From contig DLHF01000073.1 of assembly GCA_002483085.1 (NCBI GenBank), positions 10,703-74,702 on the forward strand: a stretch of DNA of 64,000 bases, given 5' to 3'. The stretch is from Ignavibacteria bacterium UBA7675 (lineage in GTDB: Bacteria > Bacteroidota > Ignavibacteria > Kapaibacteriales > UB7675). The notes under the pieces were generated by a model. It searched no databases, was not told the origin of the DNA, and was given only the letters and a program-made list of their open reading frames with translations. The translations under genes and the position numbers were made by a program. Shown here one piece after another: positions 2,096 through 62,783 of this stretch. Within the stretch, counting starts at the first letter, position 1. Every line of letters starts with the position of its first letter.

Positions 2096-2195
2096 TTGGC
2101 CTTCTGTCTTCGTCCTGCCGTTCTGTCTCTGCACCGCGCAGACGTCCGCGCATCATTCCGATGATAACTTCCATCTGCTTCGTGGCTGCCCGCCC
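2096..2195 (+). repeat. Intergenic repeat, motif-1 copy F (core TCTCTGCACCGCGCAG ... GCTTCGTGGCTGCC)
   Basis: It shares the conserved core with the copies at 8973, 22310, 34350, 50529, 57533 and 62590. Confidence 0.5.
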
Positions 2196-2461
2196 GTCGT
2201 CCGCGTATTGTTTCTACGACAACACAGCAGCCATCAAGGGCAGACACATAACAGAAAAACCAACAGGAACAATGTATAATTTTCTTGACATCAGCACACA
2301 GTTCGCTCAAATTTCGGAAAATATCTTAAATTGGCACAAGTTTGTACGGCAGGATCACACCGATTTCCTTGTCATTCTATTTCATTAACAAACAGCGCCA
2401 AGCGCTTTTCTGTACCCGGCGCGGTGTATCTGCATCGGGTGGGTACACAACAAGGTCACGC

Positions 2462-4456
2462 ATGAACCTCGGTTGCTTTTTCCAGTGGGCTCTACCTGTG
2501 CGGCGTCTTGCATCGGCAGCCTGTACAATAGCTTTGGTATCACTGTCGGTTCCGGCAGCAGCGCAAACAACGCCGCCAGCCCCCGGCCAGGAGCTTTTTG
2601 CTTTGCACGCACGCGGTGGCTTGCTGAAAAGCTGGTACACCGCCGATTTTCGGAGCTTTCAGGGCGCCATCGACTGCGGTGTTTTTACAGAAGGCGACGG
2701 GCAGGGACTCTCCTTCTCGCTTACTGGCGAGTACCCGCTGGCCAACCGGCTCTATCTCGGGCTTGGCGTGGGCTATGCACAGCGCGGCGGGAGCCTTGTC
2801 AACCCTGGCAGCTTTCCCGCACGCGACACTTCTACAGGCGAAGTGGTGACAGTTCGCACAGAGAATACTATCGAAACAACTCTGAACTATCTGGAACTCC
2901 AACCTGAAATACGCTATACACTCGTACCGGACTTCCTGCGAGGCCCGCTCCGCGCTGTAGCTGCCGTGCGGCTCGCATTCCCGATGACTTCCACCTTTGA
3001 GCAAACGGAATCCATCGTAGCGCCCGACAACGCAGCATTTACAGCAAGTGGCAGCCGCACACGCGAGCGCAAGATCGCCGCCGGAGAAATCTTCAGCAGG
3101 ACTTCGACGGGCATAGGCGCAACCGCAGGCATAGAGAACATGCTTACCATAGGTCAATCTCTCTACTTTACGCAGCAGGTGCTATTCGACTATAATTTCA
3201 GCGATCTCACAACTGATGCTTCATGGAAAACATACGGTATGAGATTCGAGGCTGGCATACGCTATGCCTTTATAAGCACGCCTCCGGCACCGCCCCAACC
3301 GCCGCCGGTACGCGATACCGTGATTATAGAGAAGCCGATTATTGAGCCCCCAGCACCGCCGCCGCCAGTAGCTGTAGTACGCATCGACAATGTGATGAAC
3401 GAAAGCACACAGTTAGAAATCGGCAACGAACTCGTGGCAACGCAGCCGCTTGTCAATGCCGTGTTTTTTGAGAAAACATCGGCGGCCATTCCCGACCGCT
3501 ATGTGCGTACCGTAGGCCGCAGCAAACCAGACGACGCAGTAGCAGCGCATCGCTATATTCTTACAGACATCGCCGAGCTCGTCCGCAAAAACCCCGAGGC
3601 ACGCATTACGCTCCAGGGAGCAACATCGGGCACAAGCGATGAACCGGCAGGGCGCGATCTGGCCGAAGCCCGTGCAGCAGCAGTACGAGAAGCTCTTATC
3701 GGGCTCGGTGTCCCAGAAAACGTGATTACCGTAAAAAGTTCGCTGTTGCCGTCCAATCCGTCTAACCAGGATTTTGAAGAAGGGCGCCAGGAAAACCGCC
3801 GTGTAGACATTGCCGTGCGCAATGCTCCGCTCCAAGAATACATAGCAAAACGCCGCTATGCTGAATTGCATTCGGTAGTGACAGGCAGCGTAACGCTCGC
3901 CAATCTGCCGTATGAAGGCGATGGATTCCTCAGGCTGAATATTGCAGATACGGTTGTGCGTGTTAGCGAATCGGGCGACTTCGCCATTCCGTTTACCCGC
4001 AGGTTAGACGCCTCACAATCGGGCGATCTGAAAGTCGTCGCTACGCTGAAACTTCCCGACCATGCGCTGCAAAGTACCGATGAAGTGCTGCTTTCGCTGG
4101 CTTCGGTACCTACTCGGGAAGTAGACCTCCAGCTCGATTCCTTCGAGCCCATCTTGCGCTTCGATTACGACAAAAGCTCGCTGAGCGATGCCAATAAGGA
4201 TCTCCTGCGGCAAATGGCAGCCGTTCTCCCAGCAGGTACGACGATTGCCATTCTGGGAAGCGCCGATGCTCTCGGAGCAGAAAAGCGCAACGCAGAGCTT
4301 TCACGGGATCGCGCGCTCAATGTCGAAAAATTTATACGCTCGATATCAGGCGATAGGTTTACGATTACATCAAGCGGAGCCGAAGCGAGGTTTCCGGATG
4401 CTACCCCGGAAGGCCGCTTCCTGAACCGCTCCATCCGCGTGCGCGCTGCGAAGTAA
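2462..4456 (+). CDS. OmpA-family outer-membrane protein with an N-terminal beta-barrel-like region, a Pro-rich linker and two C-terminal OmpA-like peptidoglycan-binding domains
   Basis: Internal Met with the signal peptide MNLGCFFQWALPVRRLASAACTIALVSLSVPAAAQ. The linker is PPAPPQPPPV...PPAPPPP. The first OmpA_C motif is ...GRQENRRVDIAVR. The second OmpA-like domain is ...AEKRNAELSRDRALNVEKFI...NRSIRVRA. Confidence 0.8.
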   Translation: MNLGCFFQWALPVRRLASAACTIALVSLSVPAAAQTTPPAPGQELFALHARGGLLKSWYTADFRSFQGAIDCGVFTEGDGQGLSFSLTGEYPLANRLYLGLGVGYAQRGGSLVNPGSFPARDTSTGEVVTVRTENTIETTLNYLELQPEIRYTLVPDFLRGPLRAVAAVRLAFPMTSTFEQTESIVAPDNAAFTASGSRTRERKIAAGEIFSRTSTGIGATAGIENMLTIGQSLYFTQQVLFDYNFSDLTTDASWKTYGMRFEAGIRYAFISTPPAPPQPPPVRDTVIIEKPIIEPPAPPPPVAVVRIDNVMNESTQLEIGNELVATQPLVNAVFFEKTSAAIPDRYVRTVGRSKPDDAVAAHRYILTDIAELVRKNPEARITLQGATSGTSDEPAGRDLAEARAAAVREALIGLGVPENVITVKSSLLPSNPSNQDFEEGRQENRRVDIAVRNAPLQEYIAKRRYAELHSVVTGSVTLANLPYEGDGFLRLNIADTVVRVSESGDFAIPFTRRLDASQSGDLKVVATLKLPDHALQSTDEVLLSLASVPTREVDLQLDSFEPILRFDYDKSSLSDANKDLLRQMAAVLPAGTTIAILGSADALGAEKRNAELSRDRALNVEKFIRSISGDRFTITSSGAEARFPDATPEGRFLNRSIRVRAAK

Positions 4457-4514
4457 CGTTTTATCGTTCTTCTGCGTTCGCTGCTCGCGGTCTTTTCTCT
4501 TTCCAGGGGGGTCT

Positions 4515-7500
4515 ATGAATAGCTCTATACGGTTCCTGCTGTCGCTGCTTATCATTGCGGCAGTAGGCACAATATGTGTGCAGGCGCAAATTTCTATTAA
4601 GGAAGTCAATCTCGACGGTTCCGATATTCCCGGTGCACCCGAGCTCGATAATGCCTCCAATAGGCTGAACTTCGATACGGTGTGTATGCCCGGGCAGCTT
4701 GTGAAGCGTATCAGTATTCGCAATACCGGTAGTTCGCCTACCAGTGCTACGCCTACGCTCGCCTCGCTGTTAGAGCTTGTGTCGAAAGCTCCTACATGGG
4801 CGCTCCTGCGCGATGATGGTACATCGTTTACAAATCCCCTGTTTCAGATTCCCCCGCTGCTTACAAATATTCCCGCCGGAGATCACCGCGATTTCCGCAT
4901 TCGCTTTGCCCCTACTGCTGCAAGCCCGAATACAAATGATCAAATAGCTATCGAGCTTTCGACCTCGCCGGTGCATACGCTTGGCGGTTTTGGTGCAGCA
5001 GTTGTACCTCAAATACTCGCAGTGTCGCCCACAACTCCGCTCTCGTTTCCCACAACAACAGTGGGGCAGCAATCAGCTTCGCAATCTGTCATGCTGCGCT
5101 CGCTCGGCCAGTGCGGTATTCTGATAAGCGATGTCGTCGTCCGCAATGCCGATGGTACGCCCAATCCCAACTATGTCGTTACAAGCAAACCTTCTGCGGG
5201 AACAATAGTATCCGCTGGAATATTCTCCGTGCAGGTTGCGTTTAAGCCAGTAGTGCCATGCGCTCCGGAAGGACGCCTTGTCGTGCTCAATGGAAACGGG
5301 CAACCCACAGGACCAGGTCTGGTGCTGCGCGGTTTGTCTACAGGCTCGAATGTGACGTTCAAGCCCTGGGATGAAATCAAATTGAGGGGCTACGTATTGT
5401 CCTATATCGTGTCGTGGTATATTCCCTTTCCCACTCCCGGTTCCTTTGAAATTATCAACAAGCCGGAGCCAGGCGGCGACCCGTCGTGTATTGCCCCAAC
5501 CACAATCAAAAGAATTGAAATCACTAAAAACACCACGGAGTTCAGCCTTGTGTCGAACCCCGCAACGCCATTTGTTATTCCGGCCAGCGGCTCGCAAATA
5601 ATCAATGTCAATTTTACCCCTGTCACCACTCTTACCCTGTCGGTGCGCACCGGAGAAGTAGCTGTCACCTACGACAAAAACGGCGTCGATGCCACAGTGT
5701 TTATCGACCTCACAGCCAATATCAACGAAGGTAAGATAGAGTTTCAGCAGAATTCGGTCTCTTTTCGGACTGTCGACTTTGGCAAAATCCGACTTGGCAC
5801 GGCATCCGCTGTGCAAACAGTAAAGATTGTTAATACAGGCACATTGAAAATCGACATCGGTAAATCTTCTGTCAATAGCGACTCGGTAGTGTACGCCCTG
5901 CCATTTATTATCCCGCCGGGCGGCCAAGTGCCAAAGGCAACACGATTAGACGAAATAACAGGGATAAATAACACGACATCGTTCAAGATGCAATTTGCTC
6001 CACAAGCCGCGCACTTCGGTCCGCAAAAAGGCTACTACCTCGTAGAAGGCTTGCAAGGAGGCCGATTCAAACGCACGCCTTACGATACGCTCTATGCCAT
6101 AGGCACAGGCGTAACACCCAACTTCCAGCGCAAATTAGACACCGTAGTAGTAGGCTCGACGGCTATTAACCTGACAGCGACAACAACAATCAAAGACTTC
6201 TGGAGCAACAAGCCGGGGCGCGGTATTCAGCTCGCCAATCTCGGCAATGTCGATATTGAGTCGATTACGATTACACCGATCCAACCAGCAACAGCCGCTG
6301 CGGAATTTACCCTAACTCGTACCCAGCCGTTTGCGCTTTCGGAAAACGGCACTTACGACGAAACATTTACTTTTACTCCCACGAGTGGCTCTCCATTAGT
6401 GCACCTTGCACTTGTACGAGTAGTGTACGACTCCGTGGGCAACGACAACAAAGAACTAACCTTTGTTATCAAAGGCAATGTCCTTGCGCCTGAGGTTTCT
6501 GCATTCGAACAAACCATCGACTTCGGCGAAGTCGTAGTTGGTTTTACAGGTACTCCCGTCACACCTGCCGCTCTGCTTACCAATACAGGAACAGCCGAGC
6601 TTGTTGTCTTTAGCCCTGTACTGTCGGACCCCAACACTCCCAAAGTATTTACTCTGAATGCGTCGGAATTTCCAGCAAAAGTACCTATCAACAGTCCGAT
6701 GCCTCCTTCTGGCCTGGTATTTGCCCCCGACGCAGAGAAAGAATACACAGCAACGCTCACGATAAAGACAAATACAGGCGGAAGTAATGCTACCCTTATC
6801 TTCACGCTCAAAGGCAAGGGCATTTTGCCGGGCATACAGTCCAAAGCCACCGAAATAGACTTCGGCAGTGTGCGTATAGGAAGAACAGCTATCGACTCCA
6901 TGTACCTGCGAAATACAGCCCCGAACACAACTCTGAGCGTTACAGGCTTTACGCTGTCGAATAGTACCGAGTTTACCGCAAGTGCCGACCGCACTCCTCC
7001 CTTCGATCTCACGAGCACGTTCCAAGCAGTGCCAGTGAGCTTTACCCCGCAAAAACCAGCAGGACCACGGCTTGCCTCAGTAGAAATCGCAAATACGTCG
7101 CAGCGCCAGCCTTCTCTTGTGCTCAAAGGCGAAGCAGCGCTCGGTCGTATGCAGGCATTTACAACCGGGGTAGCAACACCGGTCGATACAGTGCAGTTTG
7201 GCAATGTGTTTATTCAGCAGCAGCAGTCCACAGAGCTCAGCCTGCGCAATACCGGAACATTTGCTTATTATCTTACCCGGATGGAACTCATCGGCTCCGA
7301 TGCCGACCAGTTTTCCCTCTCGGTAAGTGCGCCCGGCGTGCTGCTCAATACATCCTTTCCCGCCGATTTTTCCGTAGACATAGCAGCCGAAGCAGCACAG
7401 GCTGTTTCATTTTTCCCTACAGTAGCTGGCGAGAAAAATGCTCTGCTGCGCGTTGTCGGGCTCGATCCTGTCTCCGGGCTGGCTGAGGACACAACATTTG

Positions 7501-8939
7501 TCGTCCTGCACGGCAATGCAACCGATCTTGAACTAGCGGGAGACAAAGGCGAAGGTGAGATTATTTTCGGTGATGTTCTTGTAGGAACTACGGCGATAAA
7601 AGGCGGTGTCGACGACAGATTTGTACGCATCACCAATCCCTCCCAAAACGCTGTAGAAATTTTGTCGACAACGATAGAAGGCTCTATACAATTCGCAATG
7701 TCGAACAGAGCAATCAGCATTGCACCTCATTCCTCCGATACCGTGCGGGTGTATTTCAGCCCGGCAAGTGCCACAGCACTACCGACAACAGCATCGGTCG
7801 TTGTAGTATATGCCAGTGGTCTGAGGCGTACAATGTCGGTGTCCGGGCGCGGTGTCGCTCCGGCTGCTCGATTGGACGGCGTTGTGTACACAAGCGATCC
7901 ACAAAAGAAAACGCTCGCGATGAGTACCGATGTAGGGTTTTCCACAACAGCAGCCGTCGTACTTACCAATGAGGGCAGCTATCCGCTTCTGATCTCGGAC
8001 CTCCGCTGGGAGCAAGATGTCTCCCCCTGGCTCTCGGTTGATGCTCTGCCATTTACAGCGTTTTCTCTTCAGCCCGGCAGCAGCCGCACAATGGTGTTTA
8101 CATTCTCGCCAGTAGCACAGGACATTCGCACAGCGCGCTTGCTGTTTACAACGAATCATGTGGCAATGGATGCAGCAGCCGACTCAAGCGCATTTGCTCT
8201 TGAAATCACCGCCGAAGGCATATACTCCGCACCGCCGGTGATTGTAGAAGCACTGCTGCCCGTAAAAAACGGTAAACCAGGCGACCGCGTCGATGTGCCT
8301 CTATCGGTACAATCCACAGCAATGGTAACTGCAGGCATTACACGCATGGAAGCCGTGCTGCGCTACGACCCAACGCTGCTCGTTCCGCGCTCTGTAGCAG
8401 CCGGTGATGCTGCTCCCAGCTTTGCAGCGTCGATAAGCGAGGCTCTTCCCGGCAGAGCAGTTGTTACGCTCGACGGCGGCAGCAGCACACTCGCAAACGG
8501 CACAGCTTTTATAGTGTCGTTCGATATCCTGCTCGGCAGCGCCGTCTCTTCCCCTCTGATTCTCGACACAGAGAATACCGTTGTGACTTCGGCTGTTCCT
8601 GTCGTGCTCACCTCTACAGGCGGTATGGTAGTGCTATCGGAGTTTTGCTCTGCGGATCAGCGTGTGATTGGCTTGGGTGATAGCCCAGTATTGGCATTAG
8701 TAGCGCGCCCCGAGAGCGGCACCATGAGCTTTGCAGTACGCATTCCCACCGACGACCCGGCAACATTAGAGATTTACGACAGCTATGGCCGCACAGTGGC
8801 AGCGCCATTTTCAGGAAGCCTGCCTGCTGGGCTCACAACCGTAGCAGTCGATTCGCGCTCGCTGTCCAATGGCCTGTATTTTGCAGTACTGCGTTCCAGC
8901 ACGATTGTCCGCACCCTGCGCTTTACCATTGTGCGGTAA
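4515..8939 (+). CDS. Giant (1474 aa) secreted cell-surface protein with about 10 choice-of-anchor-D / ASH-type beta-sandwich repeats and a T9SS C-terminal sorting domain
   Basis: Signal peptide MNSSIRFLLSLLIIAAVGTICVQAQ. Recurring 'FG(E/S/N/D)V.(V/I)G...(L/I).N.G...L.(V/I)' modules (for example FGEVVVGFTGTPVTPAALLTNTGTAELVV and FGSVRIGRTAIDSMYLRNTAP). The C-terminus ...LEIYDSYGRTVAAPFSGSLPAGLTTVAVDSRSLSNGLYFAVLRS...RFTIVR is typical of a Por secretion tail. Confidence 0.8.
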   Translation: MNSSIRFLLSLLIIAAVGTICVQAQISIKEVNLDGSDIPGAPELDNASNRLNFDTVCMPGQLVKRISIRNTGSSPTSATPTLASLLELVSKAPTWALLRDDGTSFTNPLFQIPPLLTNIPAGDHRDFRIRFAPTAASPNTNDQIAIELSTSPVHTLGGFGAAVVPQILAVSPTTPLSFPTTTVGQQSASQSVMLRSLGQCGILISDVVVRNADGTPNPNYVVTSKPSAGTIVSAGIFSVQVAFKPVVPCAPEGRLVVLNGNGQPTGPGLVLRGLSTGSNVTFKPWDEIKLRGYVLSYIVSWYIPFPTPGSFEIINKPEPGGDPSCIAPTTIKRIEITKNTTEFSLVSNPATPFVIPASGSQIINVNFTPVTTLTLSVRTGEVAVTYDKNGVDATVFIDLTANINEGKIEFQQNSVSFRTVDFGKIRLGTASAVQTVKIVNTGTLKIDIGKSSVNSDSVVYALPFIIPPGGQVPKATRLDEITGINNTTSFKMQFAPQAAHFGPQKGYYLVEGLQGGRFKRTPYDTLYAIGTGVTPNFQRKLDTVVVGSTAINLTATTTIKDFWSNKPGRGIQLANLGNVDIESITITPIQPATAAAEFTLTRTQPFALSENGTYDETFTFTPTSGSPLVHLALVRVVYDSVGNDNKELTFVIKGNVLAPEVSAFEQTIDFGEVVVGFTGTPVTPAALLTNTGTAELVVFSPVLSDPNTPKVFTLNASEFPAKVPINSPMPPSGLVFAPDAEKEYTATLTIKTNTGGSNATLIFTLKGKGILPGIQSKATEIDFGSVRIGRTAIDSMYLRNTAPNTTLSVTGFTLSNSTEFTASADRTPPFDLTSTFQAVPVSFTPQKPAGPRLASVEIANTSQRQPSLVLKGEAALGRMQAFTTGVATPVDTVQFGNVFIQQQQSTELSLRNTGTFAYYLTRMELIGSDADQFSLSVSAPGVLLNTSFPADFSVDIAAEAAQAVSFFPTVAGEKNALLRVVGLDPVSGLAEDTTFVVLHGNATDLELAGDKGEGEIIFGDVLVGTTAIKGGVDDRFVRITNPSQNAVEILSTTIEGSIQFAMSNRAISIAPHSSDTVRVYFSPASATALPTTASVVVVYASGLRRTMSVSGRGVAPAARLDGVVYTSDPQKKTLAMSTDVGFSTTAAVVLTNEGSYPLLISDLRWEQDVSPWLSVDALPFTAFSLQPGSSRTMVFTFSPVAQDIRTARLLFTTNHVAMDAAADSSAFALEITAEGIYSAPPVIVEALLPVKNGKPGDRVDVPLSVQSTAMVTAGITRMEAVLRYDPTLLVPRSVAAGDAAPSFAASISEALPGRAVVTLDGGSSTLANGTAFIVSFDILLGSAVSSPLILDTENTVVTSAVPVVLTSTGGMVVLSEFCSADQRVIGLGDSPVLALVARPESGTMSFAVRIPTDDPATLEIYDSYGRTVAAPFSGSLPAGLTTVAVDSRSLSNGLYFAVLRSSTIVRTLRFTIVR

Positions 8940-8972
8940 CTACTACTGCACAACTGTATATCGAAAGCAGTT

Positions 8973-9045
8973 GCGCTTCGGCCTCTGCCCTTGTGCATAT
9001 TCTCCGCACCGCGCAGCACATCCGCCGCGTAACTTTGCAGCCTTC
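8973..9045 (+). repeat. Intergenic repeat, motif-1 copy A (GCGCTTCGGCCTCTGCCC...TCTCCGCACCGCGCAGCACATCCGCCGCG...CAGCCTT)
   Basis: Shared core with the other copies; it lies 3' of the giant T9SS gene. Confidence 0.5.
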
Positions 9046-9145
9046 CATCGCTGGTTGATTGCTATGTACAGCCTCATTGTCGATGGCATTGTCGTTGCGT
9101 CGAAGCAAATGACGGTGATACGCTAACCAATCCGGCGAAACAGTC

Positions 9146-9190
9146 AAAAAAAAAAGCTTCCTGTTTACCACAGGAGGCTTTTTAGTTTTT
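9146..9190. terminator. Bidirectional intrinsic terminator (A10-AGCTTCCTG-tttacca-CAGGAGGCT-T5)
   Basis: A near-perfect 9-bp stem flanked by an A-run on one side and a T-run on the other. It sits between convergent genes ending at 8939 (+) and 9212 (-). Confidence 0.5.
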
Positions 9191-9211
9191 ACAAATATTC
9201 CTCTGTATTAC

Positions 9212-10502: not shown

Positions 10503-10660
10503 ACGTCCTCCGGGCATAGTCCTGCGTTAAGAATTAGTTACAACATCCATAAGGCGAAATATAAGGCTTCAGGGGCTAAATCTAAAGGATTTCCTCCCAA
10601 ATACGCATTGACAACTCCGGTTCTCTCTGTATAGTTGCCTTGCAAGAACCTACAACAGCA

Positions 10661-10698
10661 CAGATTGTTTGCTGCTTTGCGCTGGCCGTGTATATTTG
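10661..10698 (+). promoter_or_regulatory. Candidate Bacteroidota-type sigma-A promoter (TTG ... TATATTTG, i.e. -33 TTG / -7 TAnnTTTG) upstream of the second giant gene
   Basis: TATATTTG at 10691-10698 matches the TAnnTTTG -7 consensus known for Bacteroidota, with TTG/TTTG about 20 nt upstream. It is about 70 nt 5' of the ATG at 10769. Confidence 0.25.
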
Positions 10699-10768
10699 CA
10701 GCGGGAAGTGTGCTCTCCAATATATATTCGGTGCACTTTATATTCTGTATCCCCTTGCAGATAAGATT

Positions 10769-13700
10769 ATGAAGACAATCTCTACGGTATTGTTTCTTGT
10801 TGTTCTCTCTTTTGCAACTGCCTACGCACAGCCAGTAGTGGTGAGCGAGTACTTTAGCACTGCCAGCACAACAGGTGTCGGCGAGTGGACAGAAATTGTG
10901 GTGCTCGACGATAACGTAGACCTTCGCAATTATACACTGATCGACAACAACTCGGCGCAGACACAAGCACAGGGAGGAGTGCGATTCCGCAATGTCTCCT
11001 TCTGGCAGCATATGCGTAAGGGAACAATTATCGTGGTGCGCCACCGCGACGAAGCGATGGGTGAAGATACGGACGCATGGGATGGCTACTTAGAGATAGA
11101 AACCTCCAACGCCATGTACTTCGAGCATGTGCAACTCGCCAACCTGAGCCTGCCGTGGGAAAGCGTTGCTCTCAACATCGCTTCGGGTGGAGATATTCTG
11201 GAACTGATCGACCCTTCCGGCAATCATGTCCACTCACTTAGCCATAAGCTCAGCACAGGAACCTACTACAATTCGATGAGCGTTCCCAAACCCAACTACG
11301 GAGGTTCGCTTACTGATAATAGCTCGGTGGCAATTGTTCCGGGCGCTGATATCAGTGCATACTCCGACAACAACGCAGCAACAGAACAAACATCTCCAAC
11401 AAAAGGTCTTCCCAATGCTTCGCAAAATTCTACACTGTGGCGCTCGCTGCGGGAGCCTGCCCAGCTTTCCAATACCTCCGTTACTGTTACGCCCAATGCC
11501 GCGTTTACCATAATCAATCTGAGCTGGACGGCTGTAGACGACAGCTATGCTTTTGATGATGTGACAGGGTATATTATTCTGCGAAGTCTGACTAATACAT
11601 TTACTACTCCGAACGACGGCGTAACATACAACCCGGGAGCTATATTTGGCTCGGCAATCGTCGTCGACAATGTACTTGGTTCTGGTAACACGACATTCAG
11701 CGACGATGTATCAGCGTTGGGCATTCCCTGCAACCAGAAGGTGTATTACCGCATTTACCCGTTCCGCTATGGCACGGATGTCAATGGCAGCGGCTACAAC
11801 CCAGCTCGCGGGCGGGCATACAACACCGCAAATTTTGCTTCTGGCAATGTAGAAAAAGTATTTATCGGCCAAGCGACTGTGACTGTCAATGGCCAAACGA
11901 CATTTTGCGAAGGCGAAAACACGCAGCTCAAAGCCACTCCTGCCGGTGCATCGTACCAGTGGTTTCGCAATGGCAATCCGGTAGGCGGAGCAACAGCAGA
12001 TACATACGAAGCAACTGCCGCTGGTGGCTATACCGTGCAGATTACCGCAGCTAATGGCTGCAACAGTACATCGATTACCGTGGCGACAATTACAGTCAAT
12101 CCCAAGCCGGTCACAGCCATTGCATCAGTAGCTGCCCAATGCCTGCGAAACAATTCATTTTCGTTCTCGCAAACAGGCGTGGCTGGCGCAACCTACCTTT
12201 GGGAATTTGGCAGCGATGCTTCGCCGACAACTTCTGTACAAAAAGACCCAATTGGCATTTCTTTTAGCACTCCCGGCACAAAAACCGTGAGGCTGACCGC
12301 AACCAAAGACGGCTGTACATATACGACAACACAAACAGTAAAGGTCAATCCGAGTCCTTCGCTTACTATTTCTCCCGTTGTCCCGATATGCGAAGGCGAC
12401 TCTACTCGCCTTGTGGCAACTGCCGCTGCGGGTGTCACTTACATGTGGTCGGGCAATGGATTGAGCGACTACACGATTGCCAATCCGTGGGCAAAGCCGA
12501 CACAGACAACGCTGTACACTCTTGTCATTACCGATCCGGTGTCGGGCTGCACAGCACAGCAGCAAATTACTGTTCTGGTGTTTCCACGACCTCACGTCCG
12601 CATTCAGGCCAATGGCCCTGTTACACTCTGTACAGGCGCTACCGTTACGCTGTCGGACGACGGCACAAGCGAGGGCGGACAATTTACCTGGCTCCCCGAC
12701 TACCAGACAGGGCCAGTGCTCACAGTAACTCACGACAAACCCGGTGTATATATCTACCGCGTGGTACTCGTAGGCGGCAATGGATGCAGCGATACATCGA
12801 ATGCTATAGCCATCAGCATACTACCCAAGCCCGATGCCTTTATCAATACACCCCAGGGCACAACAGTCTGCCGTGGCAAAACAGTAAGGCTATCGGCCAA
12901 CGACCTACCGGGTGCAACATATAAATGGGGTGGTGGGCAAGATACGCGCGAAATAGAAGTAGGCCCGGGCACATACCGGGTAAGTGTAAAGCTTGGCGAT
13001 GGATGCGAAGCCATATCAGCACCGGTGACAGTTACAGAGCTAGCTCCTTCCTTCTCGCTGTCCACACGCACCGTAACGTTCGGCGAACTCGGCAAATGCG
13101 AATCCAACACAGAAACAACGATTGTGCTCACGAATACCGGCAAGGAAGACCTTTCTTTTATGTCGACAGCGTCGCCGCATTTTGTGGCACCTGGCAGTTT
13201 CATCATTCCGCGCAATGGCTCGAAAACACTTACGCTCCGCTTCGCTCCCACCGATGGAGCTGGCACGTACCAAGGAAGAATTTACCTGACAGCGTCGCCG
13301 TGCGGAGTGATCGACAGCATCGATGTCGAAGGAACAAAGGTAGGAGCCAGCGATGCAAAGCTCGATATTTCGTCGGTTGCTTATCCTACACGCCTTTTCT
13401 GTTCTACAGAAACGCAGGACACATCCGTGACTTTTACGAATGTCGGCACCGAAGAGCTGCGTATTACATCCGTTTCAGTGGCAGCTCCCTTTGCCATAGT
13501 ATCGCACACGCCAGCAGATTTCCCGCTTCTTCTACAGCCGGGCACAACCCGGCAATTCACGTTCCGGTTTGCCCCGTCGGTAATTGGCGCAGCACAGCGC
13601 GATGCCGTTCTGCGCTATGAAACTGGTACGTGCAAAGACTCTCTCCTTGTGTCGCTTTCGGGTCTGTATGAGCAACCAGCACTTGCAAGTGCTCAGTCGC

Positions 13701-15346: not shown

Positions 15347-15412
15347 GGCTGGCACGAATACAACGATCTGGGCTGGCAGGCGATAAGCTCCAGCCAACCA
15401 CGAAGCGGCATA

Positions 15413-15484
15413 TGCGACCGGTGACAGCGACGCCCGGTAGAGCCGTCCCGTTAGGGCGGCTCGACGCAACGACGCCCGTGCCAC
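15413..15484 (+). repeat. Intergenic repeat, motif-2 copy (GCGACCGGTGACAGCGAC-[42 nt containing the GCCGTCCC-gtta-GGGCGGC hairpin]-ACGACGCCCGTGCCAC)
   Basis: The same conserved ends are present at 31246, 34478 and 62727. Confidence 0.45.
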
Positions 15485-15522
15485 AGAGCTTCATAGGCTA
15501 AAAAGCAGCGTACCGCAGAAGC

Positions 15523-18132: not shown

Positions 18133-21893
<3,761 letters not shown>

Positions 21894-22020
21894 CTACTCA
21901 ATTTTCCCATCGGCAAAATTACACAAAATTCGTATGATGCAATCTATTACCCATCGAAAACATTAGATGGGTGGATAAATAGTAGGATATGGCGCTATCT
22001 GGCAGGTATAAAAACAACAA

Positions 22021-22049
22021 ACCCGAAGGCGTCCCCTCCTTCGGGTTTG
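22021..22049. terminator. Orphan terminator-like hairpin (AAACCCGAAGG-cgtcccct-CCTTCGGGTTT) in the 775-bp ligA / sigma-factor intergenic region
   Basis: A perfect 11-bp stem. On the minus strand it is followed by TTGTTGTTTTTAT. No annotated gene reads into it. Confidence 0.35.
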
Positions 22050-22309
22050 CAACGTACACACAGAGTAACCATTACTACGGAGTTATATTGCTGTATGCAC
22101 AATTTCTTCTTTTGTCGCAAAGCGTGTTAAGCGCTTCTGATGACAATAACACAGGTAATGTCAATCGGTCTCAGTAAAAGGTCATTTTTTTTGATTTTTT
22201 CTTCGGTCGCTGTCCACATATATTTGTTGTCTATTCATCTGAAATTTTCCATAATATATACGCTGAAATTGTTTATTATTCCGTCTGTGTTGCTGCCATG
22301 ATGATAACG

Positions 22310-22450
22310 CAGACGTCTCCGGCCTTGCGCTGGGTCGCTGCACCGCGCTGCACAGCCGCCGCGTAACCGTTCGCCCCCTTTCGCAACGGGGTATTGTAAG
22401 AACGCAATACGCAGACGGGACAGCCGGTGCCCGAGAGATGCCCGTACCAC
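22310..22450 (+). repeat. Composite intergenic repeat copy G (motif-1 GGTCGCTGCACCGCGCTGCACAGCCGCCGCG... plus a degenerate motif-2 GACAGCCGGTGCCC...GCCCGTACCAC)
   Basis: It has the same order and about 100-nt spacing as the composite copies at 34350 and 62590. It lies in the leader of the ECF sigma gene. Confidence 0.45.
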
Positions 22451-22635
22451 GCTGCCTGATCAGAAGCACATGCAGCAGCAAACTATTCGCTGTATATCTC
22501 TTTACACCTATCGGGAAAACATATGAGTCCGAATTACTTGGATATGTGTACTGAAATTTTTTGCACCCTTTTCCCACTTGCTGTGTTATTAAGGCTAGTC
22601 GGAAAAAAGGTGCCTTGTCCGCTTTGCCAACCTAC

Positions 22636-30273: not shown

Positions 30274-31209
30274 TTACTTCGAGAGTCGTTCCGGCTGCTT
30301 CAGCCATTTTTCAAAAAATTGTAATTTGTGTGCGCTGTACACCTGCCCACCATAAGCAGCAAGCGTGTTGTGTCCGGCACCGGGCACACTTACCCACTCT
30401 TTAAAGGGCGAGGCCAGCGCGCGAAATATCCTTCGACCATGCGAAATAGCAATGCGTTCGTCGGCTTCACCATGAGCGAGCAGTACAGGACAGCTAATGT
30501 GCGACGCAGACTTTGCAGGCTGCACCGAAGCGGCATCAAAGTGAGCCAGGATACAGGCCTGTGCCAGAGCTTCGCGGGCAACAAAATGAAACGGAATGGA
30601 CAGCATGTTCTTCTGGTACTCATAGACAACCTCATCGAGCGAGGCAAATGTACTTTCTACGACTCCGCACACAATACGCCGATCATACGCCATTGCCTGC
30701 AAAGCGATAGCACCACCAAGCGAGCTGCCGAGTATGCCAATTGGCCCTTGCACACCAACATGCTGCTCAATGGCATTAATGACACGCGCCACATCGACCT
30801 TTTCGTAAAAGCCATAGGTGCAATACCGCCCGGTGCTCCGGCCATGAGCACGGAGGTCGAACAGCACCGCATTATATCCGGCGTGTACGAGTTCGGCGGC
30901 TCCAGAGAGCATATGCTCTTTCACTCCACCAATGCCATGCAGCAAGAGAATTGTGCCCTTGGACTGTCCTTCCGCAGGCAAAAACCATGTATCGAGCACA
31001 ACTTGCTCGCCAGCATCGACGCCAAAGTGTATAGCGAACAGCCCTATCGATTCGGGGGTACACTGGTACAGCGGGTCGTCGGGTTGCGGTCGGGAGGGCA
31101 AAATAATAGCGTAAGGTGCGATATGGTACAAGCCATACCAGCAGGCTCCTGTGAACACGACTGTACACGCAAAAGCTGCTATGAGTAGTATGCGATATAA
31201 GCGTTTCAT
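30274..31209 (-). CDS. Alpha/beta-hydrolase-fold protein (membrane-anchored)
   Basis: MKRLYRILLIAAFACTVVFTGAC is the N-terminal anchor. The nucleophile elbow is GSSLGG. The oxyanion-hole context is ...LLLHGIGG.... Confidence 0.7.
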   Translation of the reverse strand: MKRLYRILLIAAFACTVVFTGACWYGLYHIAPYAIILPSRPQPDDPLYQCTPESIGLFAIHFGVDAGEQVVLDTWFLPAEGQSKGTILLLHGIGGVKEHMLSGAAELVHAGYNAVLFDLRAHGRSTGRYCTYGFYEKVDVARVINAIEQHVGVQGPIGILGSSLGGAIALQAMAYDRRIVCGVVESTFASLDEVVYEYQKNMLSIPFHFVAREALAQACILAHFDAASVQPAKSASHISCPVLLAHGEADERIAISHGRRIFRALASPFKEWVSVPGAGHNTLAAYGGQVYSAHKLQFFEKWLKQPERLSK

Positions 31210-31245
31210 AATTCGCGGAGATGGGTGGACACCACGTGGCATCTG

Positions 31246-31296
31246 ATGCGACCGGTGACAGCGACCAAACGTGCGCCGCAACGACGCCCGTGCCAC
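31246..31296 (+). repeat. Intergenic repeat, motif-2 copy (GCGACCGGTGACAGCGACC-aaacgtgcgccgca-ACGACGCCCGTGCCAC)
   Basis: Same conserved ends as the other motif-2 copies. It lies between the PP2C and hydrolase genes. Confidence 0.45.
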
Positions 31297-31315
31297 TGGC
31301 CTTCAGCCCTGAGCT

Positions 31316-34305: not shown

Positions 34306-34349
34306 AAGCAGGCGCACGCAACACAAAAAAGCTGATATGGGTGGCATTC

Positions 34350-34526
34350 GGTCTTCGATCTTGCTGTTGTCTCCGCACCGCGCGGCAACGCCGCTGCGTG
34401 GTTGTGCTCCCCATACCGCATGAATATGGCGACAGCATATAACCGGCGGCTGGCTTATGAACAACACGACACGGCTCGTGCGACCGGCGACAGCGACCGG
34501 GCTTGCGGACAACACGCCCGTGCCAC
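34350..34526 (+). repeat. Composite intergenic repeat copy E (motif-1 ...TGTCTCCGCACCGCGCGGCAACGCCGCTGCGTGG..., then ACGGCTCGTGCGACCGGCGACAGCGACC...ACACGCCCGTGCCAC) inside the flgF-flgG spacer
   Basis: It matches the order and spacing of the copies at 62590..62783 and 22310..22450. Confidence 0.5.
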
Positions 34527-34588
34527 GCAGTCTTCGCAATTAACAGAGCACTGCTTTGGCAAAACAGTACACGCGATAGGAATACTTT

Positions 34589-37962: not shown

Positions 37963-37988
37963 CGCCGCTGCACGGCGGCAAAGGCCGA

Positions 37989-38018
37989 AGAACACGCCCG
38001 GGATGTGCGACCGGTGAC
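37989..38018 (+). repeat. Fragment of the motif-2 repeat (ACACGCCCGGGATGTGCGACCGGTGACAAG)
   Basis: A partial match to the motif-2 ends in the flgI-flgJ spacer. Confidence 0.3.
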
Positions 38019-38077
38019 AAGAAGAACGCAATAACAAAGACGCCCGAACCCCAAATGCCCAACAACGCAACAGCAGT

Positions 38078-43417: not shown

Positions 43418-43495
43418 GTGGTCGAACATTTGAGAATAGAAGGCATCATACACCTGCATCAGCGCGAGAATATGCGATGAGAGCCGAACAATCAA

Positions 43496-43580
43496 TCACG
43501 CAGCGGGCGTCCTGGCATCGTTCTTACGATAACGGTAACGCGGTGCGGAGACCAGAGCAAGGACAGAGGCCGAAGCGCGT
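43496..43580 (-). repeat. Intergenic repeat, motif-1 copy H in reverse orientation (minus strand: GCGCTTCGGCCTCTGTCC...GGTCTCCGCACCGCG...CCGCTGCGTG)
   Basis: It was read as the reverse complement of 43496..43580. It is the only reverse-orientation copy I detected. Confidence 0.45.
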
Positions 43581-43624
43581 ATCACCCCACTTCAAACGCC
43601 AATACAGCTACATCACGATAGCTA

Positions 43625-44929: not shown

Positions 44930-44939
44930 TCTGGTCTGG

Positions 44940-46890: not shown

Positions 46891-47217
46891 ACTCGTATCC
46901 TTGCTGGATATGGAAAATGTTATTTAATGAGCTTATTACACGCAGATTTTCGGCAATTTACAACAGCATGTTCCTGAAAATCAAGCAGTTGCACACAGAT
47001 GACAAGTTTTTAACTAACAGTTCATTCAAAGGTTGCATCGCTTTTGCCTAGCTCCCTTCTGCTGCACCGCCGATAACACGCCGATGTAATGAAAATGTTA
47101 CGTCCGTATTATGCTGTGTTGATGCAGTCCCGCCGCCGAATTTCCTTTTCATATCAGCGGGAAAATTTGCAGATTGGCAGCTAATTACGGTCGTAGTGTT
47201 TCCCCGAACAACAGAGC

Positions 47218-50512: not shown

Positions 50513-50528
50513 ATCCCACCAGTTGTAG

Positions 50529-50607
50529 AGCGCTTCTGTCTCCGCTCTTGCTACGTGTCTCTGCACCGCGCAGCACCTCCGCTTCGTGGCTATTCAAGCC
50601 TAACCGC
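50529..50607 (+). repeat. Intergenic repeat, motif-1 copy D (GCGCTTCTGTCTCCGC...TCTCTGCACCGCGCAGCACCTCCGCTTCGTGGCTATTCAAGCCT)
   Basis: Shared core with the other copies. Confidence 0.5.
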
Positions 50608-56376: not shown

Positions 56377-56466
56377 TAGGTAATTGCTATCTTCTATGCT
56401 GGTTGGCACACCGCAGATACAACGCTGCAATGCCCGGCCTCCTATTGCTCATATGCAGGGATATGT

Positions 56467-57411: not shown

Positions 57412-57532
57412 TAGGCGCCAAACAAGTATCTGTGCATGCTGTTTTCAACAAGCAAAAAAAAGCGGCTGGATCACTTCCAACCGCCTTCAGTTTATACTCG
57501 CTCTTTTAAGTGCATCTCATCGGCCAATCATT

Positions 57533-57634
57533 TCGCTTCGGCCTCTGCCCAGAGGTGGCTTTCAAGCCACCTCTACGGTATGTCTCTGCACCGCGCTGCA
57601 CGACCCGCCGCGTGGCTGTTCAGCCTTTCACCGC
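57533..57634 (+). repeat. Intergenic repeat, motif-1 copy B (TCGCTTCGGCCTCTGCCC-AGAGGTGGC-tttcaa-GCCACCTCT...TCTCTGCACCGCGCTGCACGACCCGCCGCGTGGCTGTTCAGCCTT)
   Basis: The shared core plus an internal perfect 9-bp hairpin. It lies between the MTase (+) and FtsX (-) genes. Confidence 0.5.
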
Positions 57635-57656
57635 ATATCATCCACCAAACTATCTA

Positions 57657-58823: not shown

Positions 58824-58857
58824 AGATTTCAATCGAATGAGTAGATGGACAGGTAGA

Positions 58858-60704: not shown

Positions 60705-60975
60705 AAATACTCCTTCAGGGTCATGGAAAAATGCAGATGAAATGTATCTGTGTGTTGTAATACCGCCTTCTCTACCGCCGTGATGTGTACAGACCTGCAA
60801 ACAACTACACGCCGGAAGAATATATGCCGCAGAGGTGCCACGACACACAGGGAATGACTGCGCGTGTGGCATACAAAGGCAAGCCGACCTCTTGTTCCCG
60901 CTTCCGGCTGCCCGTTATCCTGTGAATGATCTCACTCCCGTTCCCACAAAAGCACAGTGCTCTATGGAAGTCGAA

Positions 60976-62211
60976 CTACTCTTTCAGGTTTATCGCCGAG
61001 CCATCGCGCAGTGTTTCCGAGGGGTTGAGCACAACCTGATCGCCTGCGGCAAGCCCCTGTTTTACTTCGGCAAAGCCTTCGCTTTTTTCTCCAAGTGTTA
61101 CTTGTACACTTCGCACTTTTTCACCGTCGATGCGGAATACTGTCAGCGCGTTGTTGCGCATTGCTACAGCCGCCATAGGTACCATAAGCCGGGGCGGGGC
61201 ACTTGTCTGCGACTGGTCGGTATCTGGCTTCAGGAATAGAACTTTGGCGCTCATTTCAGGTAATACCCGTTCGTCGCGCTCGGCAAAGCGAATCTTGATT
61301 TGCACTGTAGCTTTAGCGCGGTCGGCTGTGGGAATAATTTTGTGAACATTTGCTCTGTAGCGTTTATCGGGATAAGCATCCAGCGATACTTCGCAGGGCT
61401 GGTCGGGCAAAATACGCTCAATATTCGACTCCGATACATCGGCTTCTACTTCCAACGAGCTCATATCGGCAATTGTCGCTACCGCCCCGCGCGATCCCGC
61501 CGCAGCCCCAAGCGATGTAATTACCTCGCCGACATTGGCGTTCTTCGTGAGCACTGTCCCGTCGAATGGAGCACGAATAATCGTGTTCTCAAGCTGTACC
61601 TGCGCCACGCGGATATTCGCTTCGGCAACACCAACGGCGGCCTTGCGCGAGGCGAGCTGTGCCTGTGCGCGGTTGAGCCGAAGCTGGGCTGCGTCTAATG
61701 CAGCCTGTGTAGCCGAACCCGTGCTCAACAACTTCAACTGCCGGTCGTAGCTGATTTTCGCATCGTTCAGCTCGGCTTGGACATCCTCCACATCCGCTTT
61801 TGCTACTGCAAGCGAAGCGCGAAGCTGAGCCAGCGACGCTTCAATGTCGTCGCTTTCAATGCGGCCTATAATCTGCCCAGCTTTTACATTGTCGCCCTCG
61901 ATAATATACAGGTTGGTCAGTCGACCTGTTGCTTTCGATGATACAGAAGCCTGGCGCTCGGCCACCACATAGCCGCTAGCTGTCAGTACAGCGCCAGCCT
62001 GTGCTGGCGATATAAGCGATACCACCGCCACATCCACTTCTTCGCTGCTTCTAAATAGTGTGTCGCCAAGCAGCACATACCCCACCACCCCTGCTATCAC
62101 CACGAGAACCAGCGTAATAATCAGTCCCCGCTTCGATCCGCCGGTCTCAGGCTGCGAATTTCGGTTGATGCGCAAGGATGATAAATCGGCATTACGTACT
62201 TCTGATGTCAT
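60976..62211 (-). CDS. Efflux periplasmic adaptor subunit (HlyD / MFP family)
   Basis: An N-terminal transmembrane anchor, a coiled-coil hairpin (...AQLRLNRAQAQLASRKAAVGVAEANIRVAQVQLENTIIRAPFDG...) and a beta-barrel / MP domain. Confidence 0.8.
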   Translation of the reverse strand: MTSEVRNADLSSLRINRNSQPETGGSKRGLIITLVLVVIAGVVGYVLLGDTLFRSSEEVDVAVVSLISPAQAGAVLTASGYVVAERQASVSSKATGRLTNLYIIEGDNVKAGQIIGRIESDDIEASLAQLRASLAVAKADVEDVQAELNDAKISYDRQLKLLSTGSATQAALDAAQLRLNRAQAQLASRKAAVGVAEANIRVAQVQLENTIIRAPFDGTVLTKNANVGEVITSLGAAAGSRGAVATIADMSSLEVEADVSESNIERILPDQPCEVSLDAYPDKRYRANVHKIIPTADRAKATVQIKIRFAERDERVLPEMSAKVLFLKPDTDQSQTSAPPRLMVPMAAVAMRNNALTVFRIDGEKVRSVQVTLGEKSEGFAEVKQGLAAGDQVVLNPSETLRDGSAINLKE

Positions 62212-62589
62212 AATTCACTCTTTCGGTATAGATAAAGACAGTGTTTAGAGCCATCGCCCATATAAGCACCGCTAGGTTTCCATGTATCGGTACAGTCACA
62301 AACACCGAAATTACACGCTCTTTTTCTTACAACCAACACTCTATTCATTTGGCGGCTCTCATTGTCCATTTTGGATAAGAACTGTCGCTATTATCAGCAA
62401 TACCTACCACCATTGCAACGAAATCGCCACGAATACCGCAAATATAAAACGGATTCGATACAATTACAATGACAATCTACTGATGTATATGTTTAGCGAA
62501 TTGGTCAAAAATACAGAGCTCATCGGCTGGCAAAGCATATACGCACTTTTTGCAAATAGATTCATTATACCCTATCTCGGTGGTGATCA

Positions 62590-62783
62590 GCGCGCTTCTG
62601 CCTCCGCCCATACGCTTGGCCTCCGCACCGCGCTGCACACCCGCCTCGTGGCTACCCGTTCCGTCCTTCGCCTCTTATTTTCCTGCAAATGCTCTGCAAA
62701 GCGCACGGCGTTTGGCCAACCGCAAAGCGGCTCGTGCGACCGGTGACAGCGACCAGACGGGCGCCACAGCGACGCCCGTGCCA
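62590..62783 (+). repeat. Composite intergenic repeat copy C (motif-1 GCGCTTCTGCCTCCGCCC...CCTCCGCACCGCGCTGCACACCCGCCTCGTGGCT..., then ...AGCGGCTCGTGCGACCGGTGACAGCGACC-agacgggcgccacagcg-ACGCCCGTGCCAC)
   Basis: A full-length reference copy of the composite element. Confidence 0.5.

Follow-up and report, generated by a model that had tools for sequence, protein, structure and literature searches.

The 64-kb stretch of contig DLHF01000073.1 from Ignavibacteria bacterium UBA7675 that was analysed here (hereafter the window) carries ligA, bshC, dnaE and sucC, a flagellar operon, ABC transporters and large Ig-domain surface proteins, and in the spacers between its genes it harbours the dispersed repeat family that is the subject of this analysis. 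The copies are found 3-7 kb apart among housekeeping genes, that is about one per 5 kb, a density implying several hundred copies of the element per genome. A sequence-only reading of the same DNA had described two separate intergenic motifs, motif-1 and motif-2, and had offered three options for their nature, namely a structured small RNA (sRNA) family, an element resembling repetitive extragenic palindromes (REPs) or miniature inverted-repeat transposable elements (MITEs), and a protein-binding or architectural signal. Both motifs are real, but what had been missed is that they are the inverted-repeat arms of one long hairpin. The element is intergenic and has no coding capacity, its bulged hairpin is conserved and carries an excess of G·T pairs on one strand, and its copies turn over at gene junctions shared between relatives. 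We consider it probable that it represents a mobile, hairpin-forming repeat family, and among the three options the REP/MITE-like one is therefore the best fit, although the formal definitions of neither REPs nor MITEs apply to it.

Searching both strands of the window with the motif-1 core TCTCYGCACCGCGCWGCA and allowing up to 3 mismatches yields 8 matches against 0.39 expected, a number reached in 0 of 100 shuffles; seven lie on the plus strand (2126, 9001, 22335, 34370, 50558, 57583 and 62620) and one on the minus strand (43551-43534). The sequence-only reading had placed its motif-1 copies at GCGCTTCGGCCTCYGCCC, a conserved block 25-30 nt upstream of the core that is likewise part of the element. 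The 5' block of motif-2, GCGACCGGYGACAGCGAC, is matched 4 times (15414, 31248, 34480 and 62736) where 0.01 matches are expected, and its 3' block, ACGCCCGTGCCAC, is found at 15472, 31284, 34514 and 62772 and in degenerate form at 22438, the middle between the two blocks being 16-40 nt long. The weaker copies listed previously are recognisable as well, namely a degenerate motif-2 at 22413, a fragment at 38005 (formerly given as 37989) and a degenerate motif-1 near 47040-47085 (formerly about 47045). Altogether there are 12 loci in the window, where chance would give fewer than one, made up of 3 composites, 1 shortened hairpin and 8 one-arm copies, and all 12 are intergenic, while intergenic DNA makes up 11.5% of the window (P about 5e-12). 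A coding function is rejected, since the spacings between blocks differ by numbers that are not multiples of 3 and since the copies bear small hairpins inserted at differing positions between the blocks. Mechanical open reading frames (ORFs) of 131-154 aa do run across elements at 1915-2310, 22182-22577, 34081-34539 and 62282-62746, and automatic annotation could call such frames as hypothetical proteins; 62282-62746, the one that was tested, has no Pfam match.

In the three window composites the motif-1 core lies 78, 110 and 116 nt upstream of motif-2, and the linker between the motifs, for which conservation had been claimed, is common to the copies at 34480 and 62736 but is found only in part at 15414. 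The suggestion that a composite of about 200 nt is the full unit, of which the other copies are truncations, finds support outside the window. A gapped motif-2 pattern matched 17 short contigs, all of them from the JGI metagenome Ga0196964, and in 17 of 17 cases motif-2 is accompanied by motif-1 in cis and in the same orientation, 55-155 nt upstream in 14 and about 230-380 nt upstream in 3. From this we can conclude that the composite is the full unit, and the solo copies of the window would then be one-arm remnants. The unit measures about 135 nt in its compact form, which is seen in 8 of the 17 Ga0196964 copies, and up to about 230 nt or more in others.

Hairpin architecture and strand asymmetry

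When the compact copies are aligned, the motif-1 core GGTCTCTGCACCGCGCTGCA and the 5' block of motif-2 TGCGACCGGTGACAGCGACC are seen to be imperfect inverted repeats, the next inward blocks CCGCCGCGG and CCGCAACGG also pair, and so do a 3-nt spacer and an apical stem, such that the two arms close into a single long hairpin that has bulges and a variable apex. The spacer helix and the apical stem covary, with CC/GG in contig L103, TAA/TTA in L105 (contigs from outside the window are given L numbers throughout) and GGTG/CACC versus GGAGT/ACTCC versus GGC/GCC in different copies, and the apex takes extra small hairpins and inserts of 50-300 nt. An ungapped inverted-repeat finder sees the arms only in the cleanest copy, that of L103 (31-nt arms, 71% complementary), because the bulges break extension. 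On one side the long hairpin is flanked by a separate small hairpin, P1, which consists of the motif-2 3' block and the variable middle, and on the other side by a tail, GCGCTTCGGYCTCTGC. The strand that folds better is the G-rich one, which is the complement of the strand that the sequence-only reading had written out. Read on this strand the element starts with P1 as (T)GGCAC-GGGCG-loop-CGYCC, continues with the 5' strand of the long hairpin, GGTCGCTGTCACCGGTCGCA-NNN-ACCGYTGCGG (the complement of motif-2), passes through the apex to the 3' strand CCGCGGCGG-NNN-TGCAGCGCGGTGCAGAGACC (the complement of motif-1), and ends in the unpaired tail ...GCAGAGACCGAAGCGC, which repeats the word GCAGAGRCC. 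Up to 4 words like GCAGAGRCC occur per element, in the tail, the arm and the loop of P1. Arms and bulges are nearly invariant across copies and species, that is over genus-level divergence.

The consensus fold obtained with RNAalifold from 8 compact copies consists of P1 and a 26-pair long hairpin and amounts to -41.5 kcal/mol on the G-rich strand against -24.7 kcal/mol on the C-rich strand. Likewise, the minus strand of the copy at 62590-62788 folds into P1 and one long bulged hairpin at -91.8 kcal/mol, whereas its plus strand reaches -67.2 kcal/mol without the long hairpin. A covariance model built from the compact copies on the G-rich strand, R1, recovers window copies and copies in relatives. 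Over 20 full copies from 4 lineages and 31 modelled pairs, standard pairs occupy 93.8% of cells, a value that falls to 29-50% if the partner is shifted 1-3 columns out of register, and in P1, which spans about 30 nt, 90.7% of cells are paired. Changes on both sides are found in only 6 of the 31 pairs, which indicates that the arms are conserved in sequence, bulges included, and not merely in structure. Where pairing departs from Watson-Crick, the departure is strongly dependent on the strand: read on the G-rich strand (the minus strand of the window) G·T occupies 89 cells and A·C 12, among the cells that differ from the majority pair the numbers are 50 and 12, and the rows outside the training of the model still give 55 against 11, so that G·T exceeds A·C about 4-7 times. 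Since the fold energies and the excess of G·T both favour the G-rich strand, we can conclude that one specific single strand is under pairing constraint.

Turnover and orientation in relatives

The family is not confined to the window, as copies are present both in the Ga0196964 contigs and in relatives defined by LigA and DnaE. The LigA relatives form three clades, consisting of the window with L107 and L108, of L109 with L113 and L114, and of L115 with L116; LigA identity is 72-78% between these clades, and the element-bearing relatives are 72-82% identical. Synteny around the sigma-factor gene, ligA and bshC is kept among them. At the ligA-bshC junction no element is found in the window and in L108, where the two genes overlap by 4 nt (window 19803-19806); in L109 and L114 the junction holds a spacer of 218-335 nt containing an element whose C-rich strand runs in the gene-sense direction, and in L107 and L115 it holds an element with the G-rich strand in that direction. 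This distribution on the LigA tree requires at least three gains, and since the spacers of 200-330 nt (L109:10078-10291, L114:5078-5408 and L115:2380-2630) are largely made up of the element, the translationally coupled pair ligA/bshC has been split by insertion. In the spacer between the sigma-factor gene and ligA the window has its copy beside the sigma-factor gene, L108 and L113 have theirs beyond a conserved sRNA-like region and in the opposite orientation to that of the window, L107 has only a solo motif-1 at the L108/L113 position, and in L109 and L116 the spacer is empty. L120 (DnaE 93% identical) carries, upstream of dnaE, a copy without counterpart in the window, and after the methylase gene it has a copy of opposite orientation, while in L119 (clade C) a solo motif-2 lies 12 nt after the dnaE stop codon, where neither the window nor L120 has one. 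The orthologous copies of L109 and L114, furthermore, differ by an insert of roughly 100 nt at the hairpin apex. Taken as a whole, this pattern is characteristic of a high-copy element that is restricted to a clade and that comes and goes at shared gene junctions in either orientation.

No copy was seen in the 34 kb examined of relatives whose LigA is 59-62% identical, and the family is restricted to a narrow clade of uncultured bacteria resembling Kapabacteria/Ignavibacteria. The named relatives that match best by LigA and DnaE (57-67% identity) are labelled Kapabacteria, Kapaibacterium, Ignavibacteria and similar. The window contig is also present in the Logan run SRR845265. A scan of a genome collection with the bare 18-mer GCGACCGGYGACAGCGAC gave, among the matches listed, chance ones in high-GC genomes, and none of those listed was accompanied by the motif-2 3' block or by motif-1. 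The gapped motif-2 pattern has 0 matches in viral contigs, for which reason we do not regard the element as phage-borne. Contigs of several relatives end inside elements (L107 and L120 at both ends, L106 at its start), as would be the case when high-copy repeats fragment short-read assemblies, and the dnaE contigs of four relatives (DnaE relatives P0124-P0128) measure only about 5 kb. CGATAG also recurs as part of short tandem repeats inside or beside the elements of relatives, with TATCGCTTTAC repeated three times in L108 (about 4780-4900) and GATAGCAAYAGATC about five times in L120 (100-170).

With regard to orientation, the bias that had been described holds in the window, where 11 of the 12 loci share one orientation (two-sided binomial p = 0.006) with the foldable strand on the G-rich strand of the genome, which is presumably the lagging-strand template. 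It does not hold in the syntenic regions of relatives, since in the same syntenic frame and against local GC skew six copies are opposite (one in L108, two in L109, two in L113 and one in L114) and 2-3 copies, in L107 and L115, agree with the window; orientation relative to GC skew is uninformative or inconsistent in the short contigs. We treat the bias of the window as local. Orientation is unrelated to transcription of the neighbouring genes, as about 8 copies have only the G-rich strand in sense and 4-6 only the C-rich strand, the rest lying between convergent or divergent genes. Several copies are situated just past genuine intrinsic terminators. Outside the element no consensus emerges from the flanks, which hence have no promoter or terminator sequence in common, although no scan aimed at promoters or terminators was made. 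The independence of orientation from the neighbours and the position past terminators argue against an sRNA gene and against an mRNA element acting in cis, and taken together with the lack of shared promoter or terminator sequence and of any Rfam match they speak against the discrete sRNA family that had been entertained.

Known systems and rival explanations

In agreement with the sequence-only reading, which could name no matching element, Rfam 15 has 0 matches in the window at gathering score; at the permissive threshold of E <= 5, seven weak matches to seven unrelated families were returned from 12 element-bearing contigs, none attributable to the element, and the sole one to overlap a copy is PrrB_RsmZ (L103:813-983, 22 bits against a gathering score of 44, E = 0.18). 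Searches of Rfam and the literature returned no description of the family. It nonetheless belongs to a known broad kind, the palindromic interspersed repeats of bacteria, from which its asymmetric bipartite build with an internal long hairpin sets it apart. For REPs, singlets have been interpreted as what is left of hairpin-forming doublets, and insertion sequences have been noted to target REPs (PMC3116915); G·T pairs have been reported in the stems of REPs, which are thought to act partly as RNA (PMC3733652). The element resembles REPs and REPINs in being high-copy, intergenic and non-coding, in having G·T pairs in its stems and no target-site duplication, in preferring convergent and co-directional gene ends, and in persisting vertically in a lineage while individual copies turn over; like the REPIN doublet it has inverted units that fold into one larger hairpin, as the pairing over 20 copies attests, and its abundant singlets can be read as remnants left by decay, insertion or deletion. 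It differs in that its long arms are not themselves palindromes of 20-40 bp, P1 alone being a REP-like palindrome, and in that it bears neither a GTAG (GTRG) nor a CGTC terminal tag: the bases before GGCAC vary over about 27 copies (gt, at, tt, tg, cg, a directly preceding T being common), and CGTC occurs in the stem or loop of P1 in some copies but never as a terminal tag. A REP in the sense of PMC3733652 is therefore ruled out. The element is, moreover, asymmetric, and since P1 is present at one end only and the direct-repeat tail at the other it has a defined polarity, while its singlets in the window are not more decayed than its doublets.

Insertion sequences of the IS200/IS605 family, from which ORF-less palindrome-associated derivatives also exist, have subterminal imperfect hairpins, neither terminal inverted repeats nor target duplications, and one active strand. 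The element is likewise devoid of terminal inverted repeats and target duplications and has a subterminal imperfect hairpin with conserved irregularities, its one-strand excess of G·T is consistent with one active strand, and its orientation in the window is coherent, as targeting of the lagging-strand template would make it; PMC6006769 describes the hairpins of IS200/IS605 as single-stranded and their targeting as directed to the lagging-strand template. It is unlike them in that its ends do not carry similar hairpins (P1 starts 5-6 nt from one end, whereas the foot of the long hairpin lies about 30 nt inside the other and is followed by the unstructured tail), in that only a weak T-R-T preference and no conserved target of 4-5 nt is found beside the left end, and in that orientation is inconsistent in relatives. 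Repeats of the Correia/NEMIS, RUP, BOX, ERIC and bcr1 types are modular, intergenic and 100-250 nt long, are sometimes co-transcribed and form long hairpins, and those among them whose mechanism is known are bounded by terminal inverted repeats and by a TA or short duplication of the target. The element is similar to these types in size, modularity and hairpins but lacks the terminal repeats and duplications. The attC sites of integrons are imperfect palindromes with conserved extrahelical bases and a variable centre that are used in a strand-selective manner as a folded single strand. To these the element is alike as an imperfect palindrome with conserved bulges, but it comes without RYYYAAC/GTTRRRY sites, cassette arrays or an integrase, and attC or dif-like sites are rejected both on sequence, since RYYYAAC ... 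GTTRRRY is missing from the consensus, and on context, the copies being dispersed among housekeeping genes.

Three further identities were tried and rejected. A sigma-54 promoter is suggested by the conserved TGGCAC, but in all copies TTGC or CTGC follows at a distance of 8 nt and not 5, and an intrinsic terminator is incompatible with the lack of a T-run after either hairpin. The bridge-RNA region of an IS110 element was considered in view of L092 (Ga0196964), which carries at 526-2078 an IS110/IS1111-type insertion sequence (DEDD_Tnp_IS110 and Transposase_20, 366 aa) that sits within a CCACAGAG|GCACAGAG repeat, itself about 15 nt away from a hairpin element on its P1 side; this insertion sequence lies in the neighbouring CACAGAG repeat and excludes the hairpin element, whose better-folding strand is furthermore antisense to the transposase gene.

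The reading that we favour is that of a non-autonomous mobile element, non-autonomous since the window encodes no transposase, which would spread into the spacers between genes, frequently to points immediately beyond gene ends and terminators, and would be recognised as a folded single strand, most likely of single-stranded DNA. A strand-specific enzyme whose gene lies at another place in the genome may bind the hairpin and cut it, much as in REPIN/RAYT systems or with HUH transposases of the IS200/IS605 type, although we put forward this specific single-stranded-DNA/HUH mechanism only tentatively and would not call it likely. Recognition of a single strand would explain the conserved bulges, the one-strand G·T wobbles and the lack of target-site duplications and terminal inverted repeats. 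One-arm copies may in turn arise when the unstable long palindrome loses an arm by deletion or by insertion into the apex, and such instability would explain that solo cores are still perfect though the partner arm is gone.

A number of observations weigh against this reading. Neither the window nor the gene calls of about 150 kb of relatives contain a mobilising enzyme, and no RAYT, TnpA or TnpB is found among them. Copies differ by 15-30% outside the arms, and no near-identical pair of copies, which would be a sign of recent transposition, was seen; nor is there a clean empty-site/filled-site pair at the flanks of ligA-bshC, sigma-ligA or dnaE, which are too diverged for breakpoints to be read. 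The solo motif-1 cores at 9001, 50558 and 57583 have 0 mismatches and those of the composites have 1 each, so that solo cores are no more decayed than composite ones, a state that simple neutral decay of singlets would not predict. The lagging-strand orientation rule is followed by 11 of 12 copies in the window and not in the relatives, and G·T wobble suits RNA as well as single-stranded DNA. Finally, folding is only modestly stronger than in shuffles (mean z about -1.1, and -1.3 for 62590-62788; L103 folded as DNA has z = -3.75), since shuffled sequence of equal GC content also folds well, and for this reason the case for structure rests on the conserved pairing register and not on energy.

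That wobble pairs fit RNA equally well raises the question whether transcripts of the G-rich strand, made from promoters of its own or as parts of neighbouring mRNAs, act as a multi-copy structured RNA whose bulged helix and P1 might serve as a substrate of RNase III or another protein, as a site of mRNA stabilisation or processing, or as a scaffold for an RNA-guided system. The retention of pairs through G·U on this strand (89 against 12), its far better consensus fold, the variable inserts between conserved blocks with covarying small stems that are typical of RNAs, the conservation of arm sequence and bulges over genus-level divergence and the partial action as RNA that is attributed to REPs would all agree with it. 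We nevertheless regard it as unlikely, since relative to the upstream gene the G-rich strand is antisense in 4-6 of the informative cases against about 8 in sense and is antisense even inside the flagellar operon (34341 and 37987), several copies lie just downstream of intrinsic terminators, no promoter or terminator sequence is common to the flanks, covariation on both sides is confined to 6 of 31 pairs, one-arm copies that are unable to form the helix are equally conserved, and rapid gain and loss at orthologous sites speaks against a locus-specific function. The equal conservation of one-arm copies without a pairing partner is in turn what one would expect if the GCAGAGRCC-like blocks were a host DNA signal, bound by a nucleoid, replication, segregation or repair protein and polarised along the replichore as KOPS and Chi are. 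The conservation of these blocks in sequence, their recurrence in tail, arm and P1 loop and the uniform orientation of 11 of 12 copies within 64 kb, with the G-rich strand on that of the genome, would be in keeping with such a role. It is however made improbable by the mixed or reversed orientation in syntenic regions of relatives (6 opposite; L107 and L115 the same), by positions that are not conserved between close relatives, and by the fact that a double-stranded binding site leaves the strand-specific G·T excess unexplained. Known polar signals are words of 8-28 bp that also occur inside genes, and are thus unlike intergenic modules of 135-230 nt.

The same strand asymmetry is unexplained if the family consists of conventional cut-and-paste MITEs derived from an insertion sequence with a DDE transposase, the arms then being the inverted repeats to which the transposase binds. 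It is true that the element, at 135-230 nt, is small, contains no ORF, has inverted repeats of about 20 nt around a variable centre and is polymorphic for presence and absence, and that an insertion sequence is found in one related contig, L092. But the inverted repeats do not reach the ends, from which they are set back by about 30-40 nt, and the conserved ends themselves, (T)GGCAC... and ...GAAGCGC(C/A), are not complementary; neither target-site duplications nor direct repeats flank about 20 complete copies whose flanks were aligned, no exact empty-site/filled-site pair being available among these; no copy has an ORF between its arms; and the insertion sequence of L092 is of the IS110 family (DEDD and not DDE), lies in the CACAGAG repeat and is not bounded by the arms. 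A classical MITE is ruled out by the missing duplications and by the ends, and a DDE-derived origin in general we judge to be very improbable. Even less can be said for a family of invertons, in which the arms would be the inverted repeats used by a master site-specific invertase to flip the apical segment. Conserved inverted repeats at many loci around 20-380 bp of variable DNA, and an apical hairpin ATYGTAAGAACRAT found in either orientation relative to the arms among copies, are compatible with this notion. It is rendered far-fetched by compact copies in which no more than about 16-20 nt extend past the paired region, too little for inversion, by complementarity that runs through the spacer to the apex, by the many copies between convergent gene ends, where a promoter switch would be senseless, by the shared apical orientation of the orthologous L109 and L114 copies, and by the lack of a recombinase gene nearby.

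Going beyond the mobile, hairpin-forming repeat that we favour, one may speculate that the element goes beyond mere selfish DNA and is a strand-specific folded nucleic acid, present in roughly 600 copies per genome, whose invariant bulged helix is the recognition element of an unrecognised enzyme system of the FCB group (Fibrobacteres, Chlorobi and Bacteroidetes), although the chances of this seem slim. Candidates would be a new HUH-type or other single-strand transposase, or a domesticated nuclease paired with its own repeats, or else the G-rich strand, as RNA or single-stranded DNA, might be a scaffold for a host or guide-dependent system; nested insertion targeted to the apex would then be part of the life cycle of the element. 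To our knowledge very little is known about the repeat biology of the Bacteroidota/Chlorobi/Ignavibacteria group, and the mobile family, if real, would add to it an interspersed-repeat family not described before, from an uncultured branch that is itself poorly known. The one-strand G·T signature would then point to a partner enzyme specific for single strands, and a junction invaded at least three times in both orientations as well as an apex that takes inserts provide handles for studies of target choice. The family furthermore breaks short-read assemblies of the clade and could serve as a lineage marker.

The individual copies and their surroundings

In the following, strands are those of the G-rich foldable strand, on the opposite of which the motifs as originally written are read, and bit scores are those of model R1. 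The two full composites of the window are both on the minus strand. The better of them, at 62590..62788 (55.4 and 83.8 bits), consists of a tail at 62592-62609, an arm at 62620-62639, a 74-nt apical region, the second arm at 62736-62753 and a P1 hairpin ACGGGCG/CGCCCGT that ends at 62784. The other, at 34341..34530 (minus, 72.1 bits), lies in the flgF-flgG spacer with its G-rich strand antisense to the operon and has the tail followed by an arm at 34370-34387, a 55-nt apical insert, an arm at 34480-34497 and the end of P1 at 34526. In the third composite, 22305..22454 (minus, 29.8 bits), the motif-2 arm is degenerate, being replaced or interrupted by the small hairpin TATTGTAAGAACGCAATA. The shortened hairpin at 31199..31300 (minus, 34.5 bits), between two minus-strand genes for a SpoIIE-like protein and a hydrolase, has a full motif-2 (31248-31296) that pairs with a degenerate, shortened motif-1, GGACACCACGTGGCA, the inner helix being deleted.

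Of the one-arm copies of motif-1, that at 2096..2190 (minus; R1 match 2096-2238, 9.7 bits), between divergent genes for a DUF4139 protein (minus) and an OmpA-family protein (plus), has a tail block at 2097-2114 and the arm core at 2126-2143, followed by a 28-nt insert with its own small hairpin and then ATCTGCTTCGTGGCT. Four others lie between convergent genes. At 8973..9040 (minus) the tail block (8973-8990) is followed by a core without mismatches (9001-9018) and then CCGCCGCGTAAC; at 50528..50600 (minus, 24.7 bits) a perfect core at 50558-50575 is accompanied by the small apical hairpin GGCTattcaAGCC; at 57531..57640 (minus), downstream of a DNA methylase gene, a 26-nt hairpin, CAGAGGTGGCTTTCAAGCCACCTCT, is inserted between the tail and the perfect core at 57583-57600; and the copy at 43489..43595 (plus, 14.5 bits), the sole one in the opposite orientation, carries the inserted small hairpin ATCGTTCTTACGAT. 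A possible, strongly decayed motif-1, TCGCTTTTGCCTAGCTCCC ... TTCTGCTGCACCGCCG, at 47040..47085 (minus) between divergent genes was recognised by eye only and is not detected by the covariance model. Motif-2 is represented by a one-arm copy at 15383..15488 (minus) between convergent genes, in which the arm GCGACCGGTGACAGCGAC (15414-15431) is followed by a P1 region with a 40-nt middle and the end ACGCCCGTGCCAC at 15472-15484, and by a decayed fragment, GCGACCGGTGACAAG ... GACGCCCGAACCCC, at 37987..38060 (minus, 20.3 bits) between flgI and a gene for an SLT-domain protein.

A tiny hairpin module, AT(C/T)-GTAAGAAC-(G/A)AT, occurs inside elements at varying positions and in either orientation relative to the arms, both in the window (22390-22408 and 43512-43532) and in relatives (L106:~90-110, L096:~180-200 and L113:~7640-7660), which suggests nested insertion or a flipping of apical segments. 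Ga0196964 also has a second repeat module, CCACAGAGGCACAGAG with a purine-rich stretch, that directly follows the hairpin element and in one case lies inside its apex (L091:1041-1075, L093:~660-700, L100:~200-245, L101:1407-1440 and L094:~255-330), and a third repeat, GTCTCCTGTCTCCCGTCTCCC, is common to L091, L092, L093 and L100, so that the spacers of this genome appear to be mosaics of several repeat families.

Two very large proteins of secreted type, encoded at 4515-8939 and 10640-15346 (1474 and 1568 aa), flank two of the repeat copies and are composed of ASH/HYDIN/Cep192-like Ig domains together with cohesin, PKD and CHU_C-type domains. The composite at 22305..22454 lies between a plus-strand gene for an extracytoplasmic-function (ECF) sigma factor and, on the minus strand, the sRNA-like region mentioned above and ligA. 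This region (22010-22174, minus) is a conserved non-coding stretch of roughly 165 nt that has no Rfam match at E <= 1, ends in a strong intrinsic terminator (AAACCCGAAGG-AGGGGACG-CCTTCGGGTTTGTTGTTTTT) and is nearly invariant in its 3' half (GTGTACATGCAG..ATAACTCCGTAGTAATGGTTAC..) in all three clades of relatives, which makes it a candidate for an unannotated sRNA or a leader of ligA.

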